A stretch of DNA of 64,000 nucleotides from Escherichia coli (GTDB lineage: Bacteria > Pseudomonadota > Gammaproteobacteria > Enterobacterales > Enterobacteriaceae), in the NCBI RefSeq assembly GCF_965641715.1, contig NZ_OZ282453.1; one strand, 5' to 3'. Both the position numbers and the translations under genes were made by a program. Under the pieces are notes generated by a model. The model did not search any database. It was not told where the DNA came from and worked only from the letters and a program-made list of their open reading frames with translations. Positions 1-38,717 of this stretch are shown one piece after another (position 1 is the stretch's first letter; each line of letters begins with the position of its first letter).

Positions 1-239
1 GATATTCCCGGCGGGATCGTAGTTTTGTTGCCAGAGATTCATTGCAGGTCTCCTGGAGTCCACGCACATCGTGTAATGAGTCTGTTGCTCATCTACTTGT
101 CACACGTTGTGTAAAAGTGGCACTGCCAATTGTGTTGTGTAGGGATAATGACAATGAATGGTTAACTAAATGTTATGTATTGGCAACATTGATGTGAGTT
201 TTAATTGGGGAATTGTGAACCAGAGGTCAGATAAGCGAA

Positions 240-258
240 GAATTGGTAGGGCCAATTC
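240..258. promoter_or_regulatory. Inverted repeat GAATTGG-N5-CCAATTC; candidate GntR-family (LldR/PdhR-type) operator in the promoter region of the lldP operon, whose coding sequence would lie just beyond the window start
   Basis: Palindrome read directly at 240-258. By K-12 synteny lldP follows yibL and would be transcribed away from this region on the minus strand. Confidence 0.3.
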
Positions 259-326
259 TTGTGGGGGGAGATGTCTGGTAAAGAAAAGGGCAATCCTCAT
301 CAGAGAATTGCCCTTAGATTGTTGAC

Positions 327-430
327 CCGGAGCGCCTTATCTTGCCAGATGCTGCGTGAACACCTTACCCGGCCTATAGGAATGTGCAGAATCACCCTGT
401 AGGCCTGATAAGCGTAGCGCATCAGGCAAT
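327..430. repeat. REP/BIME cluster downstream of the adhesin gene
   Basis: Canonical REP unit gtaggcctgataagcgtagcgcatcaggcaat at about 400-430 plus a degenerate REP-like unit at about 327-380; short direct repeat ttgcccttag at 308-317 and 438-447 flanks the cluster. Confidence 0.55.
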
Positions 431-468
431 TTGGCGTTTGCCCTTAGTCACACTAACTTAATGGATCA

Positions 469-3400
469 TTACCACTGAATACCGGCACCGAGTGCGGCGG
501 AGTATTCACCCTGGCTATTGGTACTACCTTGTAATTTGTAGACCCAACGACCATTGGCGCTCACCATCGACACACCTAAAGCAACTGCCGATTCACCGTT
601 GTAAGTACCGCCACCAATAGAGGCCATGCTGGCACCTGGAGTGTAAGCCTGCGGCAGACCGGTCATTGCCATTGCAGAAGCGATACCACCGCTCAACTTG
701 CTTTCAGTTTTAGACAGTTTGTTATCCATCTCAACCATCCGCTGATCGGTGTATTGCTTCGTTTCCTGCACGCTTTGCTTCAACTGCGCGTAGTTCACCG
801 CGTCGTTGTTGTTGACGCCAGCGGAGACGTTGCTGATACGAGTCGTACCGCCGTTGCCCCCACCGAGGGTGATATTGCTATAGTCAACAGAACCATCAGC
901 GTTGGTGTCGTAACGTACACCGCCCGCCTCAGAAGACTTCAACTGTGCCACGTTAACAGCATCGGTGTCGTTTTTACCTGCGGCTACGTTGGTGATACGA
1001 CGTTGATTAGTAGATGAGCCTACAGAGATCGTATTTTCTTCGGTTGCCACAGACCCTGTACCCAGTGCGACGCTGTTATCCGCGGCAGCAATGGAACCAG
1101 AACCAATCGCGACGCTATCTTTACCCTGCGCGCTGGCATCTACACCATCGGTATTGGTCTTGAAGTACTTGGTGCTACCGGTGGTGACGATATCGCCAAT
1201 ACCGTTTTCGATATTAGTAACGCGAGTATCCAGATTAGTGACCTGATTGTTCAGGTTAGTAATGCTCTGGGTATTCTGGGAAACCTGCGCATCCGTTACT
1301 TTCAACTGACCTACGTTGACCGCATCGGTATCCGCTGAACCAGCTGCGACGTTGGTGATCTGACGTTGACCGTCTTCACTACCAACAGAAAACTCACCTA
1401 CAGAGTTCTGCGGTGCGTCCATGTTGTAGGCGGTGTAGCCAGTCTGTGCACCACGGGTGGTCTGAGAACCGTTACCCATTGCAATACTGTTTGCATGGTT
1501 TGCGCGTGCGTTACTGCCGATAGCAATGCCGTTGATCGCATCAGCCAGAACCAGAGTGTTCAAACCGATACCAATACCTGCATTACCATTAACGACAGTT
1601 TTCGCACCCATTGCCAGCGAGTCTTCACCAACGGCCAGTGAGTCTTCTGCCGTTGAGTTGGCGTGAAAGTACTTGGTTGGCGTGGTTGCGACCGCACCAA
1701 TCGCATTCTGCAATTGACGAACCGTAACGGCGTCATGGGCTTCGGAACCATCAGCTACGTTGATGATTTGGCGGTATTTACCGTCATTACCAATTGACAA
1801 TGCACCTAGCAGTTCGCCGTCAGTGGTGTCATAACCAATCACCACGCCATTTTCCGTTACGCTAGTGTCACGAGAACCTTTGGCAATCACACGGCTGGAA
1901 ACGGAGCTGCTACCCAGCGCAATACCGGTATCAACGGTGCTATTGCTGTTCTGACCAATGGCTACGCTGCTGGCACCAGACGCGACAGCGTTATAACCTA
2001 CAGCTGTAGCGCCGACACCAGAGGCGCTTGCATCGTTAAAGGCTAAACCGTTGTCGTTAGTACGAACGTAGTTGATACCAGCGCCATTTTCTTCGATATA
2101 GGTTGCGTCGGTGTTACCAGCAAGCTGATTGATGATTTGGCTGTTCTGCTCAATCATCATATTCGTCGCATTCAACTGAGAACCGTTCACTGCATCGGTA
2201 CTGTCCTCACTAATACTGCCATTAGCGACATTAGTGATGATGCTGGCTTTACCGTCATGGCTGGCATTGTAGGCTCCTGCACCGCCATTGGCAGTCTCAT
2301 CCCACAGCAGGGCGTTATCATCAAGCGCATCCAGGGCGTCACCGACGTTGTTGTACTCGGCGTTCGCAATGGTGTAAGTCGGTGCGGTGATGGTGCCGTC
2401 AGCGTTAACTTCTGCATCACCACCCAGCGCATCAGCGATGTACTTGTTGGTGGTATACAGTTGTGAGCCGTTAATAGCATCGCTGCTGGTTGCGGAGACT
2501 GTACCGGCTGCAACATTAGTGATCTTGCTGGCGGAGTTATCTTTCCCGTGACCAGCACTGAATGCACCTTTACCATCATTGGCTGTTGCATCCCACAGCA
2601 GAGCATCATCGAGAGTGGTGTCGATGGCGTTCAGGGCATCACCGACGTTATCGTAATCAGCATTAGCAATGGTGTACGTCGGCGCAGTGATGGTGCCGTC
2701 TGCATTGATTTCGGCACCACCACCCAACGCATCTACGACGTACTTATTGGTGGTATAGAGTTGCGAGCCGTTCACAGCATCAGAGCTTGTGCTTGAAACA
2801 TCCCCGTTTGCGACATCAGTGATCACGCTTGCGTCACCATTAGTACCGTGTTTGGCACTAAATTTATCTACGGAAGCGTCCCAAAGCAGGGCATCGCCGA
2901 GAGACGTGCTAAATGAGGAGTTAATCGCAGCTAGTGCATCGCCGACGTTATAATAATTTGTTTCACCGATTTTGTAGGTTGGACCGGTAAACACACCGTC
3001 AGTATTCACAGAAGCATTGCCGCCGAAGTAGGTGGCGATATTGCTGCTTAAGTCATAAAGCTGGCTGCCGTTAATGGCATCGGAACTGGTTGCAGTGACT
3101 GCGCCGTCCAGGATATTGGTGATTTTGCTGGCGGCGTTGTTGCCATGAGCAGCCGTGAAGACACCATTGTCCTTATCCCATTTCAGCGCATCTTCACCAA
3201 GGTTAGTCACCGTCTCAGTCAGGTTAGAGATGTTGGTGGTGTTAGTGGCAATATTGGTGGTATTCGTCGCCACAGCATCGTTGGTGGTTTTCAGCTGGGA
3301 GCCGTTAACGGCATCAGTGCTGCCAGCCGTCAGGTCGGCATCTTTAACGTTGGTGATTTTGCTGGTGGCGTTGTTGCCGTGAGCTGCCGTGAATACACCA

Positions 3401-5358
3401 TTGTCCTTATCCCATTTCAGCGCATCTTCACCAAGGTTAGTCACCGTCTCAGTCAGGTTAGAGATGTTGGTGGTGTTAGTGGCAATATTGGAAGTGTTAT
3501 TGGCGATATTGGTGGTATTCGTCGCCACAGCATCGTTGGTGGTTTTCAGCTGAGAGCCGTTAACGGCATCGGTGCTGTCAGCCGTCAGGTCGGCATCTTT
3601 AACGTTGGTGATTTTGCTGGTGGCGTCGGTGCCATGAGCTGCCGTGAATACACCATTGTCCTTATCCCATTTCAGCGCATCTTCACCAAGGTTAGTCACC
3701 GTCTCAGTCAGGTTAGAGATGTTGGATGTGTTAGTGGCGATATTGGTGGTGTTGGCTGCCACGGCATCGTTGGTGGTTTTCAGCTGAGAGCCATTAACCG
3801 CGTCAGTGCTGCCAGCCGTCAGGTCGCCAGCGGTGACGTTGGTGATTTTGCTGGTGGCATCAGTACCGTGTGCGGCGCTGAATGCTGTACCCTTCCAGAG
3901 GAGGGCATCATCCTTAAGGTCGCCAACGGAATCCGTCAGGTTGGTGATATTGGTGGTGTTAGTGGCGATATTGGTGGTGTTGGTTGCCACATTATCATTG
4001 GTGGTTTTCAGCTGAGAGCCGTTAACGGCGTCTTTACTGGTAGCCGAAATATCGCCATCTTTTACATTGATGATTTTGTTTTCTGCTACGGTACTGGTAA
4101 TCGTTCCATCAGCATTTTTAACAATATAATTGGCGCTGAAAGCCCCTTTAGCTGAGTCCCAGTGCAGAGTTTCATTGTCAAGGTACTGGAGTGCTTCACC
4201 AACGTTATTGAAATTCTTTTTCTTCAGTTGAAAAGACATATCCATTATTGTTCCGTTAGTAGCAACATTTGCTCCGCCTCCCAGCCTGTCTGCTACTGAC
4301 CTACTAATGGCGTAAAGTTGTGAACCGTTAATGGCTTCTTTACTGTCCGTTGAGATTGTACCTGCCGCCATATTGACGATGCGACGCTGCGCTGACCCAG
4401 AGCCTACCGATACAACGTTGTCTTCACCTGCTGTAGAGTTTGCACCAATCGCGACGGAGTTATTCCCTCCTGCAGAGGATGAACTTCCTAATGCAAGACT
4501 GTTTGATCCAACCGCAGAACTTCCTGTACCGATCGCAATAGCATTTGCGGTTGATGCGCAGCTGTTCTGGCCTAATGCGATGGTGTTTGTGTTTGATGCT
4601 TGCGCATTTTGCCCCAAGGCAAGAGCACTTGCGCCAGTAGCCGCTGCTGTATATCCCAGGGCAACAGAACCTTCACCTGTTGAATCACTGTTTGCACCTA
4701 ATGCAAGACTGTTTTTGCCTCGAGCTTTCGCTTTAGTACCTACAGCCGTCGCATTTTCAGCGGCTTCGGTCTCAGCACCTATCGCAATGGAGTTTGCTGC
4801 ACTGGCAAGTGATTGCCTGCCTAATGCCAGAGAGTCTGCGCCGTTCGCCTTTGCAGATTTTCCCAGCACTAAAGAGTTGCTGGCAGTAGTAGCAGCTTGT
4901 GCTCCGACCCCCAGGACAACTGAATATTCTGCCAGTCCGTCGGCCCCACTACCGATTGCGATCGCTCGGTTTCCGGAAGCTTCTGCCACTTGTCCGATTG
5001 ATACCGATCTCTCTCCGGTTGCGTAGCTTTGGTAACCTAATGCAGTCGAACCAATACCTGTAGCCCAGGCGTTCGCGCCCACCGCAACTGCACCAGTCCC
5101 ATTGCCCACTGAGGACGCTCGTGCACCCTGGCCAATAGCTACCCAGACATCAGTGATTTCTGTTGGATCAGAGAATGTGCCACCATCAAGTGACGCACTG
5201 GCGTTTGCCCCAAACGACGAAAACATTCCACCCGCAACCAGGGCAGAAATTAACAGCTTACTGCGACCAGATTTCTTACCACGGCTCTTCGCTGTTTCGC
5301 TGGCAACGCTATAACTGCCCGTCGCCGGATTCCAGATGACTTTAAATATTTTGTTCAT
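469..5358 (-). CDS. upaG: Trimeric autotransporter adhesin, SadA/UpaG/EhaG family, 1629 aa
   Basis: N-terminal extended signal peptide [10 protein letters not shown]...; Ala/Gly/Ser-rich head repeats (NSLALG, NSVAIG); many neck motifs S(T)DAVNGSQL; Asn/Thr-rich coiled-coil stalk; C-terminal YadA-like anchor ending ...[10 protein letters not shown]. Symbol assigned by family and position only, allele not determined. Confidence 0.85.
3140..4110. repeat. Four near-identical tandem repeat units (about 234-255 bp, 78-85 aa each) inside the adhesin stalk, with 7-aa NTTNIAT-type sub-repeats
   Basis: The string cattgtccttatcccatttcagcgcatcttcaccaaggttagtcaccgtctcagtcaggttagagatgttgg recurs at about 3165, 3399 and 3654; the antisense ORF 3145..4155 shows the same peptide three times, confirming DNA-level identity. 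Confidence 0.75.
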
Positions 5359-5401
5359 TATTGATGTTCTCTATTCCTTGATATAAGCGCAGAAGCTGCA
5401 T

Positions 5402-6085
5402 TTATTTTTTGTTTTTTCGCTGCCGAGTTTCAGCAGATTGAACAGTGTCGAACTGGAGATTGGCCATATTGATGGACAACTTCAGATACTTCAGGTTATT
5501 AGGCGAAACGCCTTTTAATGTCAGATTAATGTCTTGCCATTGACCAGGCATTAATTGCAGAGTGGAATTCAGAGCGGTATTGAAAAGTAATTGTTGCCAC
5601 TTCGCCAGAGCTTTGGCATCGGTGGGCCTTTCATTGCCCCATGTAGCATGAAAACCAATATTTGATACGGGAACGCTTAATAGGTTGACCAGCGAAATAC
5701 GAATAACGCTGCCGTTTTCAACTGCATCAATAGCCAGCACCCGACCCGCCAAACCGACAGAGCCGTTATTTAAAATGAAGTAGTGTGTTTGTGCTGGGTT
5801 AAATTCTGTGAAGACAAATTCATCCTGCTTTTCTTTAACTCCCTTCACCACACTAGCAAGCGTTTTGGTACTACTTATGATGGCAGTTTGCTGTTTTTCA
5901 AATAGTTCTATCTTGCGTTTATCTTGTTCTTGTTGTTTTTCAAGTTGCTCTATTTTACTTTTTTGCAACTCTTGCTGTTTGGAAAGATCGTCGATTAGTT
6001 TTGCTTTTCCAATATAGTCACACCCTGTCAACATGCAGAGTGGCGATATCATTAACAAGCTTAATAGTATCTTTTTTAGATTCAT
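5402..6085 (-). CDS. SadB-like inner-membrane lipoprotein, 227 aa, putative adhesin surface-display helper
   Basis: Signal peptide with lipobox LTGC followed by Asp at +2 (CDY), an inner-membrane retention signal; coiled-coil-prone Gln/Glu/Lys-rich region; start has SD aaaggaa; 43 bp upstream of and co-oriented with the adhesin gene, as in Salmonella sadB-sadA. Confidence 0.7.
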   Translation of the reverse strand: MNLKKILLSLLMISPLCMLTGCDYIGKAKLIDDLSKQQELQKSKIEQLEKQQEQDKRKIELFEKQQTAIISSTKTLASVVKGVKEKQDEFVFTEFNPAQTHYFILNNGSVGLAGRVLAIDAVENGSVIRISLVNLLSVPVSNIGFHATWGNERPTDAKALAKWQQLLFNTALNSTLQLMPGQWQDINLTLKGVSPNNLKYLKLSINMANLQFDTVQSAETRQRKNKK

Positions 6086-6630
6086 AGGATGAATTCCTTT
6101 TCATAATCCTGATGCGTTGAAAATTACTTTACAATCATTTGCTTTATGAATGATCAAGCTAAATAAATTCACGGTGAAAATTTATAATATTTTTAATTGG
6201 TCGTTACTGTGAATGTGTTATTCAATGCAGAAATATTTTAGTTTGTTGCCGATTATTATATTAATCGCGCGGATTCTAATGATTGGTGTCAATCGATGTC
6301 AAATTTTTAAAGGGATAAGGTGAGAAAAAGTCAAAGGATAATATTTGTATGGTGAATGTTTTATAGTGATAAGGACAGTTTGAGTTGGAAAATATAAATA
6401 AATAGTTATGATATAAGCATGTTTATGCTGATATTTATAGCTGTAAATTATATATTAATTTTTATTGCGTAGCATATTTTCAGATTTTAACCTGCTAAAA
6501 TTATTCAGGTGAGTGGGAAGAATTGAAAAGATAATGTTAATAGATTTCGATATCTGAAATATGCTCCTGCATTTGCCAGCAGGAGCGAATAAAAATGAGG
6601 AAACTTTAGTTGTATTGACCAGTAGGGGAC
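6086..6630 (-). promoter_or_regulatory. Long AT-rich intergenic region holding the yibL terminator and the presumed promoter of the lipoprotein-adhesin operon
   Basis: 545 bp of very AT-rich sequence (for example ttataatatttttaattgg, aaatataaataaatagttatgatataagc) between yibL stop and the lipoprotein start. Confidence 0.4.
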
Positions 6631-6993
6631 TTAAAACGCGGTCTTTGAGAAGCCGGTCATCTCTTCCAGGCCCATTTCGCGGCCCAGCGCGGTCATTGGG
6701 TGAACAACCACCAGTCCGCGAACACTTTTCTTCAGCTTGCCCATATCAGCCTGCTCTTTTTTGGTAATTGCGCGCTGAAACGGCATCTTCATCAGCTTCT
6801 GTGCTTCTTTACTCAGTTTCTGGCTGTGAACTTCACGCAGGCGGGCAATTTCTGCTTCCAGCGTGGCTTTCTCTTTTTCCAGCTCGGCATATTTGTCTGC
6901 GGCTTCAACCAGCGACAGATCGGCCTGCTGGTGGCGGATGGCGTCCAGACGATCGCTGAGACGTTTGATTTCGTTTTTTTCGACTTCTTTCAT
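6631..6993 (-). CDS. yibL: YibL, ribosome-associated protein of unknown function, 120 aa
   Basis: Translation [28 protein letters not shown]... matches recalled K-12 YibL in length and position next to mtlR/yibT. Confidence 0.85.
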
Positions 6994-7277
6994 GTGATGG
7001 CTTCTGATAAAGATAAATTTATAGCCCCTAGTATGCGCGACCAGGTGCTTTGTTCACAACTGATGACATTGCAATAGTTCCGCAACGTAATCATTTATAT
7101 GCTTAAAAACTACGCAATTTATTGATTAATTAAGAAATCTATAGAAAAAAGATAATAAACAGAAGCGGATGATTATTGAGGATTCAGCACGTTTTCCTTA
7201 ATGTCATCTTTACCGGGAACCTAAACTAAAATTGGCGGCCGCGCATTCCCGGCGCGGGGTAATACGGAGATATCATC

Positions 7278-7487
7278 ATGGGCAAATTAGGTGAAAACGT
7301 TCCGCTTCTTATCGATAAAGCCGTAGATTTCATGGCATCAAGCCAGGCGTTCCGGGAGTATCTGAAAAAACTTCCTCCCCGTAACGCGATTCCGTCCGGA
7401 ATACCCGATGAAAGCGTGCCGTTATATCTACAACGTCTGGAGTATTATCGTCGGCTTTATCGGCCGAAGCAGGTAGAGGGACAGTAA
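7278..7487 (+). CDS. yibT: YibT small protein, 69 aa
   Basis: 69-aa [31 protein letters not shown]... convergent with mtlR, matching K-12 gene order. Confidence 0.8.
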
Positions 7488-7497
7488 GCGAAAGTAC

Positions 7498-8085
7498 TTA
7501 CTTTTGGAAGGCTTTTTTTAAGCTGATTCTGGAAATCAGCTCTGTCAGTGAAAGGACCATTGTTGATCGCACAGCCTGTTGATAGCGCTGAATTTGCATT
7601 GCATACAAACTGGAGTCTGCTGGTTCAAACTGTGGCGGCGGTGGCAACGCCGCCACGCAGTGCAGTTCACCAAAGGGTCCAAGGATCTCGTCGTCGGTAA
7701 AGGCGTACTCGTTGCCGTCGTGATTTAGTTCTTCACGCAATGCCATCAGCAGCTCCGCATCTTCGTATTCCTGGCGGTTAATGACGCCCAACCCGTAAAT
7801 GAGTTTTAAACGCACAGAAAGATCGCCCAGCGGACCATCGCCGTCGAGTAACGGTTCTACAGCATACTTCACCGCGTAATCGTCTTTGCGGAATACCTGA
7901 AGCACCAGAAGATTTACCGCCTCGGTCAGGAGCTCGACGGCGGTGATCAGAAAGCTTCGCACGGTTTTGCCAGCATTCAGACGCTCAAGCACACGGTTTT
8001 CAAAGGCCTGGGTTTGTTCCATTGTTGCCTGCATATCTGACAATCTGTTATTCGGGCGCAGGGTGTCCTGCGCCTGGTCCACCAT
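7498..8085 (-). CDS. mtlR: Mannitol operon repressor MtlR, 195 aa
   Basis: Length and sequence [36 protein letters not shown]...; immediately downstream of mtlD, start overlapping the mtlD stop (TAATG). Confidence 0.93.
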   Translation of the reverse strand: MVDQAQDTLRPNNRLSDMQATMEQTQAFENRVLERLNAGKTVRSFLITAVELLTEAVNLLVLQVFRKDDYAVKYAVEPLLDGDGPLGDLSVRLKLIYGLGVINRQEYEDAELLMALREELNHDGNEYAFTDDEILGPFGELHCVAALPPPPQFEPADSSLYAMQIQRYQQAVRSTMVLSLTELISRISLKKAFQK

Positions 8086-9233
8086 TATTGCATTGCTTTA
8101 TAAGCGGTTACCGCCTCAGATACAACCTCGCTGTTGGCATCAAGCCCGGAAATCTGTGCCAGCGCCGCCTGCGGACCTTTGTCAGCGATCAGTGCTGCCA
8201 GTTCCTGAGCCTGCGGATCATCTTCACTGCGGAAGTGCATTGCAGCGGCAATACCTTCAATCAGGTTTTTATGTGGCAGACCATATTCCAGCGTACCGAG
8301 CAGTGGCTTGATCAGACGGTCGCCTGCGCTCAGTTTACGCAGCGGCTGACGGCCTACGCGCTCTACATCATCTTTCAGATACGGGTTCTCAAAACGACCG
8401 AGGATTTTCTGGATGTACGCCGCATGCTTGTCAGCGTCAAAGCCGTAACGCTTGATCAGTACCGCGCCACTTTCTTCCATCGCACCTTTTACCACCGCGC
8501 GGATTTTCTCGTCGAGAATAGCGTCACGAATGGTCTGATGACCGGCCAGTTTTCCGAGGTACGCGGTTATAGCATGACCCGTGTTCAGGGTGAAGAGTTT
8601 ACGTTCGACAAATGCCATCAGGTTGTCGGTTAACTCCATGCCTGGGATGTTCGGCAGTGCGCCTTTGAACTGAGTTTTATCGACAATCCATTCGCTGAAG
8701 GTTTCTACCGTCACTTCCAGCGGATCGTTAGTTGCAGAAGCCGAAGGCGGTACGATGCGGTCAACGGCGGAATCGACAAAGCCAACGTGTTCTTCTACCC
8801 ACGCTTTGGCGTCTTCCGGCAGGGCGTTCATCACATGGCCTTTCAGTTGCGTGGTGCCGCGGACCATGTTTTCACAAGCGATGATGTTCAGCGGAGATTC
8901 ATTACCTTGTTCTTTACGTTTCACCAGCCCTTTGGCGATAGCCGGAGCAATACGTTCCAGCACTACCGGGCCAACGGCGGTAGTGACTAAATCAACCTGA
9001 GCAATGAGATCAACGACATCATCACCAATGCTGCTGACAGCATTGACGCCAGAAACGGTATCTACCTGCTCGGTTTCACCGACCACATGAACCTGATAGC
9101 TATGACGGGCATTCAGGGCATCAAGTACCACCTGATTGACATCGGCAAACGTCAGTTGTATACCCGCGTCTGCCAGCAGTTTACCGATAAAGCCACGACC
9201 GATATTACCTGCGCCAAAATGTAATGCTTTCAT
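8085..9233 (-). CDS. mtlD: Mannitol-1-phosphate 5-dehydrogenase, 382 aa
   Basis: ORF track gives a 485-aa frame; true start taken at [17 protein letters not shown] (Rossmann motif), ATG confirmed at 9233, giving the K-12 length. Confidence 0.93.
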
Positions 9234-9244
9234 AGTATTAACCT

Positions 9245-9460
9245 TCATCAATGTTTTTACCCGAGAGGGCTGGGGTGAGGCTTTTCCCTCACCCAAACCC
9301 TCTCCGTGAGGAGAGGGGCAGCGCCGGAGGCGGCGTAAACGCCTTATCCGGCCTACAAGAACGTGCAAATTCAACAAATTGTGATGCATCCTGTAGGCCT
9401 GATAAGCGAAGCGCATCAGGCAATCAGCCCCACCGTCTCCATGTGGAGAGGGTGGGATTG
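9245..9460. repeat. REP/BIME cluster in the mtlA-mtlD intergenic region, with flanking CTCTCC...GGAGAGGG-type palindromes
   Basis: REP units at about 9322-9357 and 9390-9424; flanking imperfect palindromes ccctctccgtgaggagagggg (about 9293-9313) and cgtctccatgtggagagggtg (about 9433-9453). Confidence 0.65.
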
Positions 9461-9462
9461 GG

Positions 9463-11376
9463 TTACTTACGACCTGCCAGCAGTTCCAGCACTTCATCCA
9501 CACTGGTGGTGTGTGCCAGACGCTCGATGACAGACTCATCATCCAGTGCGTTGGTCAGGCTGGTGATAACCTGAATGTGCTCGTTGTTACGGGCTGCAAT
9601 ACCAATCACCAGACGGGCAATGTCATCTTCTTCTTCGCCGAAGCGCACGCCTTCCGGGTACTGGCAGAACACGACGCCAGTTTTCAGTACGCGATCTTTC
9701 GCTTCAACCGTACCGTGCGGCACTGCGATAGACTCACCCAGATAAGTCGGGGTCAGTTTTTCACGATCCAACATCGCCTGAACGTACTCCGGCTCAACGT
9801 AACCACCTTTCACCAGCTGCTCGCCAGCAAAACGAATCGCTTCTTCTTTGGTGGCAGCTTTGCGACCGAGGAAGATGTTCTCCGCGCCCAGTTTGAACAG
9901 GTTAGCACTGGAATCGTCAAAGCTGTCTTTCAGACTGTCTTTCACTTTCACTTCGTTTTCAGTATGGCGCTGGGCAGCAACCAGACGTTCGGTCAGGCTG
10001 GTGTACAGGCCGCTGTCGAGGAAGTTGGTCAGCGAAATATGCTGTGCCTGCGGAACCTGGCGCATAGCGCGTTCGGTCAGGTCACGGTGAGTGATGACGA
10101 GGTCCACATCTGGCGGCAGGTTGTTGATCGCGCTGTTAGTGACCGAAATCTGCGACAGACCTGCATCCTGAATTTTCTTACGCAGCACGCCTGCGCCCAT
10201 CGCACTTGAACCCATACCGGCGTCACAGGCAACGATGATTTTACGTACGTGGCTCAGGTCGTTAGTCACATCGCCCGCAGACAGCGGAGATGCACCTTTA
10301 GACTCAGCTTTCATGTCCTGCATACGACGAGTTGCTGCTTCAATATCATCTTCTTCTTTCACTTTGCTGGTTTTCAGCAAAATAGCAGAGACAACAAAGG
10401 AGACAGCCATCGCCGCACACACACCCGCGATGTTAGCGAAATAAGCACCTTTTGGTGTCATCGCCAGTACAGCAAGGATAGAACCCGGAGATGCCGGAGA
10501 AACCAGACCACCGCCCAGGATAGTCAGCGTGAACACGCCAGTCATACCGCCGAGGATAACGGCCAGGATCAGACGCGGATTCATCAACACATACGGGAAG
10601 TAAATTTCGTGGATACCACCCAGGAAGTGGATAATTGCCGCACCGCCCGCAGACTGTTTAGCGCTACCACGACCAAAGAACATGTACGCCAGCAGCACGC
10701 CCATACCCGGACCTGGGTTAGCTTCAATCAGGAAGAATATGGATTTACCCAGTTCATGGGACTGCTGAATACCCAGCGGCGAGAAGATACCGTGGTTAAT
10801 GGCGTTGTTGAGGAACAGGATTTTCGCCGGTTCAACAAAGATAGACGCCAGCGGCAGCATGTCATGGACAACCATGAAGTTAACGCCCGCAGCCAGCATT
10901 TTGGACAGGGCTTCAACAATCGGGCCAATGCCGAGAAATGCCAGAATGGCGAGGATCATCCCGATGATGCCTGCGGAGAAGTTATTCACCAGCATCTCAA
11001 AACCGGATTTGATCTTACCGTCTACCCAGCGGTCGAAGTGCTTAATGCACCAGCCGCCCAGCGGACCTGCAATCATAGAACCGAGGAACATCGGCATGTC
11101 TGCGCCGACGATAACGCCCATGGTGGTGATGGCACCGACTACGCCGCCACGTTCGCCGCCTACCAGCTTACCACCGGTATAACCGATCAGCAGCGGCAGG
11201 AGATAAGTGATCATCGGCCCGACCAGCTTCGCCAGCGTCTCGTTCGGTAACCACCCTGTTGGAATAAATAACGCGGTGATGATACCCCACGCGATAAACG
11301 CGCCGATATTTGGCATCACCATGTTGCTGAGGAAACGACCAAAGCTTTGCACTTTGATCTTAATATCGGATGACAT
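9463..11376 (-). CDS. mtlA: Mannitol-specific PTS enzyme IICBA, 637 aa
   Basis: Full-length match in size and sequence to MtlA ([25 protein letters not shown]...). Confidence 0.95.
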
Positions 11377-20494: not shown

Positions 20495-20582
20495 CATTGC
20501 CTGATGCGACGCTTACGCGTCTTATCATGCCTACGGGACCTGACCGTAGGCCGGATAAGGCGTACACGCCGCATCCGGCATA
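20495..20582. repeat. REP pair (BIME) downstream of aldB
   Basis: Units gcctgatgcgacgcttacgcgtcttatcatgcctac and gtaggccggataaggcgtacacgccgcatccggc. Confidence 0.65.
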
Positions 20583-24311: not shown

Positions 24312-24361
24312 TTCACCGGTGGATGTCGGTGCGGCTGGCCTACGCTCTCGCACCGACTTGT

Positions 24362-24447
24362 ATGCCTGATAAGACGTGTTAAGCGTCGCATCAGGCAATG
24401 TGCTCCTTACGTTGGATGCGGCGCGAGTGCCTTATCCAACCTACGGA
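24362..24447. repeat. REP pair between yiaT and the accessory hydrolase gene
   Basis: Units gcctgataagacgtgttaagcgtcgcatcaggc and ggatgcggcgcgagtgccttatccaacctacgg; the second overlaps the hydrolase stop. Confidence 0.55.
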
Positions 24448-38614: not shown

Positions 38615-38717
38615 ATGCCAGATGCGGCGTAAACGCCTTATCCGGCCTACAAATTCTTCCAAATTCAATATATTGCAGAAATCATGTAGGCCTGATAAGC
38701 GTAGCGCATCAGGCAAT
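38615..38717. repeat. REP pair (BIME) between ysaA and avtA
   Basis: Units gatgcggcgtaaacgccttatccggcctac and gtaggcctgataagcgtagcgcatcaggcaat. Confidence 0.65.

Follow-up and report, generated by a model that had tools for sequence, protein, structure and literature searches.

The mtlA-mtlD spacer of Escherichia coli as a composite of known repeat families, with a BoxC-like module conserved next to mtlD

What the palindromes between mtlA and mtlD of Escherichia coli are, and whether they could affect the expression of the two genes relative to each other, is the question that this locus raises. Davis et al. reportedly described REPs in this spacer in 1988. A preliminary description of the stretch of E. 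coli DNA analyzed here (64,000 nucleotides, henceforth the window) proposed that the two REPs are flanked by imperfect palindromes, that the whole is nested and could form extensive secondary structure on the mtl mRNA, and that this structure may modulate differential expression or decay of the transcript. The mtl genes lie on the minus strand, and the spacer between them is 229 bp long (9234-9462). Its features, in the order of the window coordinates, are the following.

8085-9233, minus strand: mtlD, followed by mtlR; the same annotation stands at this place in E. coli genomes.
9231-9262, minus strand: conserved mtlD translation-initiation region, GGGUAAAAACAUUGAUGAAGGUUAAUACU-AUG, with the SD GAAGG at 9242-9246 and the start codon at 9231-9233.
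9263-9269, minus strand: b5, CCCUCUC, a partial inverted copy of b2.
9273-9294, minus strand: predicted hairpin H1, b3 GGGUGAGG (9287-9294) paired with b4 CCUCACCC (9273-9280), -16.3 kcal/mol.
9298-9317, minus strand: predicted hairpin H2, b1 CCCUCUCC (9310-9317) paired with b2 GGAGAGGG (9298-9305), -15.7 kcal/mol.
9323-9356, minus strand: REP y (GTAGGCCGGATAAGGCGTTTACGCCGCCTCCGGC on the minus strand), one arm of the BIME-1, tail-to-tail with z1.
9357-9392, no strand assigned: 36-nt L linker of the BIME-1; IHF-like site ATTCAACAAATTG at 9369-9381.
9393-9421, plus strand: REP z1 (GTAGGCCTGATAAGCGAAGCGCATCAGGC), the other arm of the BIME-1.
9429-9456, minus strand: predicted hairpin H3, CCCACCCUCUCC-ACAU-GGAGACGGUGGG, 12 bp with one mismatch, -20.7 kcal/mol.
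9463-9465, minus strand: mtlA stop codon (UAA).
9463-11376, minus strand: mtlA open reading frame; the same annotation stands at this place in E. coli genomes.

On the mRNA, read 5' to 3', the mtlA UAA is followed by H3, REP z1, the linker with the IHF-like site and REP y, then by H2 (b1 and b2), UUU, H1 (b3 and b4), CAG and b5, and finally by a conserved A/U-rich stretch that carries the SD and ends at the mtlD AUG. Palindromes of the CCCTCTCC-N4-GGAGAGGG type thus flank the two REPs on either side. An inverted-repeat search recovered both, close to where they had been placed; the one on the mtlD side, put at 9293-9313, does exist, but about 5 nt away, at 9298-9317. It is a perfect 8-bp stem, CCCTCTCC/GGAGAGGG (9298-9305 and 9310-9317), with a 4-nt loop. 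The arms of H3, 13 nt each (9429-9441 and 9444-9456), are 92% complementary, and the hairpin starts about 6 nt past the mtlA UAA. The pattern CCTCTCC-N3-8-GGAGAGG occurs once in the 64 kb against 0.00 expected, and all three copies of the GGAGAGGG octamer in the window (0.73 expected) fall inside the spacer; together with the folding energy given below, these counts place the palindromes beyond chance. Three further features had escaped the preliminary description: a third hairpin, GGGTGAGG/CCTCACCC (9273-9280 and 9287-9294), a GAGAGGG block (9263-9269) that is complementary to the mtlD-side palindrome and lies on its downstream side, and the fact that the two palindromes are direct repeats of 29 nt with 79% identity.

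By its blocks, the mtlD-side palindrome is part of a BoxC/PIT/TM_ECO intrastrand-triplex motif (CCCTCTCC-GGAGAGGG-GGGTGAGG). As DNA, the module reads b1 CCCTCTCC, b2 GGAGAGGG and b3 GGGTGAGG; an incomplete copy in inverted orientation, b4 CCTCACCC and b5 CCCTCTC, comes next. The stretch CCCTCTCC-TCAC-GGAGAGGG-TTT-GGGTGAGG matches TM_ECO sequences of MG1655, e.g., no. 17, CCCTCTCCCTGAGGGAGAGGGTTAGGGTGAGGGG (PMC4666352, Table 1). The triplex rule calls for consecutive pyrimidine, purine, and purine blocks forming class II triads (G*G:C, A*A:T, T*A:T), loops of 1-6 nt, and a stem no shorter than 6-8; in the mtl motif, whose loops are 4 nt and 3 nt, a manual reading against PMC4666352 gave 8 perfect triads (G*G:C / T*A:T / A*A:T), with b3 as the would-be third strand. 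Direct comparison also showed similarity to the family consensus, CCCTC(T/G)CCC-N3-4-GGGAGAGGG-TTA/CCG-GGGTGAGGG. The consensus form of the module has matches at 15-25 places per E. coli chromosome, and others in Klebsiella, Rhizobium, Sinorhizobium, and Azospirillum. For MG1655, Holder et al. 2015 (PMC4666352) listed 23 near-identical TM_ECO copies, with inverted pairs at five loci; the mtl copy is absent from this list and from the text-form supplement, and a comparison of the module with Rfam gave no match. No match to the K-12 lldD-trmL spacer, the site of a BoxC pair (TM_ECO 17 and 18), was found anywhere in the window.

H3 reads as a degenerate 29-nt duplicate of b1, b2, and the beginning of b3. 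It departs from the triplex rule, having C or A in its purine block and lacking the mirror third block, and among the species sampled it was found in E. coli and E. albertii only.

By the definitions of z1, y, and L of Ton-Hoang et al. 2012 (PMC3333891), the REP pair classifies as a BIME-1/RIP: its single y and single z1 are inverted with respect to each other, and the long L linker between them carries an IHF-like site. This predicted site, ATTCAACAAATTG, has one mismatch to WATCAANNNNTTR. The IHF consensus is not enriched in the window (63 matches versus 58 expected). A second BIME-1/RIP was found at 38618-38715 (REP y, an L linker with ATTCAATATATTG, REP z1), and the linker core CAAATTCAAyAwATTG is common to the two. 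Other REP matches in the window lie at 364-412, 20521-20559, 24360-24444, and 43354. Comparison with the Rfam model of naRNA4 (RF02564, a REP325-derived RNA) gave 33.8 and 24.5 bits, below the gathering threshold of 59.5 bits, and this resemblance is owed only to the common REP sequence. The architecture of the spacer is a composite of known E. coli repeat families and not a new kind of element, and the mtl element is best classified as an unlisted further member of the BIME-1 and BoxC/PIT families.

We then determined how the spacer would fold as RNA. The minus-strand RNA of 9230-9470 gave -112.5 kcal/mol versus -75.2 +/- 4.9 kcal/mol for shuffled controls (z = -7.7), which agrees with the expectation of better-than-shuffled folding, but the antisense strand folded just as well (-109.8 kcal/mol, z = -7.5). 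Such equality is expected for palindromic DNA repeats, and because of it the fold energy is unable to separate RNA function from DNA repeats. Given the z score and the high pair probabilities, extensive and strongly non-random secondary structure on the mtl mRNA is possible, as had been suggested. The nesting was not borne out, since both the minimum-energy structure and the pair probabilities gave six adjacent local hairpins with mean pair probabilities of 0.73-1.0, the sixth being a central one made of the two REP tails and the L linker. Pairing of H3 with H2 around the REPs, for which the arms are 76% complementary, was missing from both the minimum-energy structure and the ensemble. A long-range helix closing the mtlA stop region onto the mtlD start region had a probability of 0.7-0.87 but was not conserved (mean z of +0.4 over 80 species, with z < -2 in only 1).

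Within the module, the truncated inverted copy b4-b5 downstream of the motif allows b2 to pair with either b1 or b5; in the latter case, H1 is lengthened to a 17-19-bp helix and H2 is excluded. Since b1 and b5 are copies of one block, the two folds are near iso-energetic, the mean E(long) minus E(H2+H1) being +1.0 kcal/mol (standard deviation, 2.3; 65 species). The pair probability of H2 was 0.73 rather than 1.0. No intrinsic terminator (GC-rich hairpin plus U run) was found on either strand between 8900 and 9800, and the promoter/terminator scan yielded no promoter-like site. At 9237-9252 (minus strand), a small and weak hairpin, AUUGAU/GUUAAU, would put the mtlD SD (GAAG) in its loop; in other genera its G.U pair becomes A-U (AUUAAU).

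How variable the spacer is within the species was determined in 5,426 complete E. coli genomes. The K-12 spacer, with which a comparison had been suggested, showed the same 229-bp architecture at 97.7% identity; by eye, most of its substitutions spare the stems and fall in loops, in linkers, or at the H3 mismatch. Among the individual strains compared, the spacer measured 94, 228/229, 318/319, 419, or 520 bp, the long alleles differing by whole 101-bp y/z2 REP units, like BIME-2 arrays. The junction of the mtlA end, H3, and REP z1 was present in 4,500 of the genomes (about 83%), while that of the 94-bp allele, which lacks both H3 and the REPs and is found in O157:H7, O55:H7, and others, was present at an identity of at least 99% in 826 records (about 15% of the genomes). 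Missing from that share of genomes, the REP pair and H3 are dispensable in nature. The mtlD-side module was found in 5,404 genomes, at least 99% identical in 4,830 of them, and the window form is single-copy per genome by BLAST. Elsewhere in the window, positions 1-7500 (genes for a YadA-like adhesin and a DUF3251/SadB-type lipoprotein, yibL, yibT, and the lldP start) were covered to at least 80% in only 211 of the 5,426 genomes, with a best identity of 98.6%.

Taking away from the window spacer the 135 nt that separate the GGAGAGGG copies at 9310-9317 and 9445-9452 gives the 94-bp allele, and a deletion between these two 8-bp direct repeats is its most likely origin. The direction of the change follows by parsimony from only two outgroup-like sequences, H3 and the REPs being present both in E. 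albertii and in another species representative that bears the label E. coli. The flanking haplotypes of two 94-bp alleles, compared with a single versus a recurrent origin in mind, showed few differences.

Beyond the species, we compared 80 loci from one scan for MtlD relatives in species-representative Enterobacterales genomes. The stretch from the mtlA stop to b1 was highly variable by lineage, ranging from nothing to a species-type REP, REP pairs, or extra hairpins. Escherichia has y/z BIMEs there, Salmonella and Citrobacter have a single REP, and Phytobacter, Dryocola, and Cedecea have other REPs. In Citrobacter werkmanii, C. youngae, and Enterobacteriaceae RIT691, the spot of the Escherichia BIME is occupied by an insert of about 130 nt (containing GTGAATCCCCAGGAGC and GACTGGGGTGAGCG), which resembles an ERIC/IRU element. 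Extra BoxC-like hairpins, some of them inverted, stand between the mtlA stop and the module in Cedecea, "Enterobacter" Cy-643 and Ag1, Franconibacter, and Siccibacter; they are lineage-specific counterparts of the H3 duplicate of Escherichia. In 13 loci of Erwiniaceae (Pantoea, Mixta, and others), the module is absent and the spacer sequence is unrelated. Pantoea-type spacers have GC-rich hairpins (GGGGCGGGC-loop-GCCCGCCCC) at the same position, two near-identical ones in most and one in Mixta, with a U-rich stretch after the second hairpin in most; the pair can fold locally or as one long helix.

This turnover bears on the strongest of the alternatives to a role in mtl expression, namely, that the spacer is a permissive site in which selfish or structural BoxC/TM elements and REPs matter at the DNA level only, through mobility of the REPIN/RAYT type or hairpin or triplex formation in replication, and which acts as a hot spot of insertion, duplication, and deletion. 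That different lineages carry different inserts between the mtlA stop and b1, that E. coli strains differ in how many 101-bp REP units they have, and that the two strands fold equally well all speak for it, as does the work of Holder et al. (PMC4666352), which ties TM_ECO loci to local instability and found no regulatory role for them. What it accounts for poorly is the module, and on the whole we consider it unlikely, though a serious contender.

The module b1-b5, together with the mtlD initiation region, was found at the same position in 65 of the 80 species loci, the genera including Escherichia, Citrobacter, Salmonella, Klebsiella, Enterobacter, Kosakonia, Phytobacter, Cedecea, Siccibacter, Franconibacter, Buttiauxella, and Mangrovibacter. 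Over its 43 core columns, identity to the window averages 92%, compared with 53% for the four-fold sites of the adjacent mtlD, taken as neutral-like; for the mtlD translation-initiation region the mean identity across genera is 83%. The b2b3/b4b5 helix was 91% paired, and in 7 pairs both partners had changed (e.g., UUC/GAA, CCA/UGG, and GGGAAAGG/CCUUUCCC); none of 500 shuffles reached the observed values, and slid controls were 36-58% paired. Departures from Watson-Crick pairing in the stem were mostly G.U on the sense strand (48 versus 6), although b3 may also be constrained by the triplex rule. The overall wobble count (90 versus 46) was rejected as a strand test, being dominated by two mutually cancelling linker columns. 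Only the mtlD-side module looks constrained, strongly so and with its pairing maintained. What is new here is that a BoxC-type hairpin adjoining mtlD is near-unchanged across enterobacterial genera.

Such stability and compensatory changes count against a purely DNA-level role, as conservation plus compensation needs either purifying selection or continuous homogenisation. Homogenisation by other copies is opposed by the observation that the E. coli mtl copy differs from the E. coli TM_ECO consensus and yet stays nearly identical in the great majority of the E. coli genomes noted above.

The reading that we favour, with modest assurance, is an accretion of three repeats in the spacer, the RNA hairpins of which act like REP intercistronic elements elsewhere. 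An old element of the BoxC/PIT/TM_ECO type has been kept across Enterobacteriaceae immediately ahead of the mtlD ribosome-binding site; Escherichia has in addition a BIME-1/RIP just 5' of it, bracketed on the mtlA side by H3, the degenerate 29-nt duplicate of b1-b2-(b3). On the polycistronic mtl mRNA, these elements would fold into a row of six stable hairpins, which could form a barrier to 3'-5' exonucleases protecting the mtlA segment and possibly a weak Rho-dependent attenuator of read-through, while the conserved BoxC-like hairpins beside the mtlD SD may serve to cap the mtlD-mtlR segment on its 5' side. The constrained core would then be the BoxC-like module, with the BIME-1 and H3 as dispensable modulators.

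An effect on the relative expression or decay of mtlA and mtlD, which had been suggested from the outset, is reasonable on the analogy of REPs elsewhere, and a stabiliser/attenuator role is plausible on the same grounds. Where REPs lie between tandem genes, expression of the upstream gene is favoured, and REP325 works both as a stabiliser and as a partial Rho-dependent terminator (bioRxiv 10.64898/2026.03.23.713779). Loss of mtlD makes mannitol toxic, through the mannitol-1-phosphate toxicity described for mtlD mutants (PMC11784389), and attenuation before mtlD is therefore unlikely to be strong. Our literature search on the mtl spacer found no report of expression, half-lives, or 3' ends, and the supplement of Adams et al. 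2021 contains no RNA 3' ends within the spacer. For an antisense RNA, that supplement does list a 3' end inside mtlD, toward the 3' terminus of the gene (K-12 3775490, minus strand; roughly 8170 in the window). As Holder et al. (PMC4666352) relate, an earlier study saw no promoter or terminator activity for PIT/BoxC elements; their own work found no link of TM_ECO to gene function, and the triplex was seen only for the isolated single strand in vitro, with no in vivo support.

The near-invariant sequence of b2-b5 exceeds the need of a simple stabiliser hairpin. It is a doubtful proposition, though one worth stating, that the BoxC-like module (9263-9317) works in cis as a conserved and sequence-specific regulatory element, in the form of a bistable RNA or of a site for protein binding, and tunes mtlD/mtlR versus mtlA. 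As for protein binding, MtlR was rejected as a candidate in the spacer, since it acts at the promoter through CRP (PMC13421365). The RNA version, a switch for mtlD in which b2 pairs with b1 (H2) or b5 (the long helix), the choice of fold being made by a factor or by co-transcriptional kinetics and setting mtlD-mtlR processing, stability, or translation relative to mtlA, strikes us as improbable. It gains from the near iso-energetic folds in 65 species, the conservation of all five blocks, the covariation of the long helix, the incomplete pairing of H2, and the physiological importance of the MtlA-MtlD balance (PMC11784389). It loses from the fact that near-degeneracy is automatic in any inverted BoxC pair, five of which exist in K-12 (PMC4666352), and that no ligand or protein is known for it, MtlR working elsewhere. 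Nor does it have an Rfam family, and b5 is not complementary to the SD.

A very unlikely explanation is an effect on mtlA translation like that reportedly described for REPs near stop codons by Liang, Rudd, and Deutscher in 2015, in which ribosomes terminating on mtlA would be stalled by a stable hairpin no more than about 15 nt from the stop codon, with a fall in MtlA output via trans-translation: H3 does begin close to the UAA, and in the 94-bp allele and insert-free species the first hairpin (H2) lies 5-15 nt past the stop, but in Salmonella, Citrobacter, and others the first structure past the stop is a REP at a variable distance and Mangrovibacter has about 170 nt of other sequence in between, so that proximity to the stop codon is not conserved.

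To our knowledge, no function has been assigned to BoxC/PIT/TM motifs in the approximately thirty years for which they have been known. The mtl copy departs from the published picture of these motifs as unstable and functionless: the module is fixed in place while REPs, ERIC-like elements, and extra BoxC-like hairpins turn over beside it. Were the module indeed cis-regulatory, it would guard against mannitol-1-phosphate toxicity and would be the first functional assignment of any BoxC/PIT element. Since the mtl operon offers an easy phenotype (growth on mannitol and mannitol-1-phosphate toxicity) and natural alleles with 0, 2, 4, 6, or 8 REPs, the role of BoxC and REP hairpins is directly testable here.

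Among known systems, the closest to the conserved part of the spacer are the BoxC/PIT elements, reportedly described by Bachellier in the 1990s and by Hoyne et al. in 2000. The mtl motif shares with BoxC/PIT/TM_ECO the three-block design CCCTCTCC(C)-loop-(G)GGAGAGGG-TTA/TTT-GGGTGAGG(G), near-identical blocks, and an intergenic location, and it is followed by an inverted copy, as at 5 loci of K-12. It differs in having blocks of 8 nt rather than 9-10 nt, TTT as the second loop, and an inverted partner truncated after b5, and also in being stably orthologous in more than 25 genera, whereas TM_ECO loci were described as unstable (PMC4666352).

The BIME-1/RIP (RIB) of the mtl spacer resembles others in its inverted y and z1, 36-nt L linker, IHF-like site, and single copy, but its IHF core has one mismatch, and other E. 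coli strains have BIME-2-like y/z2 tandem units here. A REP stabiliser/attenuator element inside an operon is also found at malE-malF. With REP325 (yjdM-yjdN), the mtl spacer has in common REP hairpins between two co-transcribed genes and an expected bias toward the upstream gene (bioRxiv 10.64898/2026.03.23.713779). It differs from REP325 and malE-malF in that its REPs are flanked by a second, older repeat family.

In the pstA-pstB spacer of K-12 (within 3908150-3908850), an inverted BoxC, CCCTCACCC-TAA-CCCTCTCCCC-AGA-GGGGCGAGGGG, precedes a y/z REP pair that lies directly in front of the pstB start. This BoxC (TM_ECO no. 19) is oppositely oriented and lies on the upstream side of the REPs, but the pstA-pstB spacer, like that of mtlA-mtlD, combines a BoxC with a y/z REP pair inside an operon.
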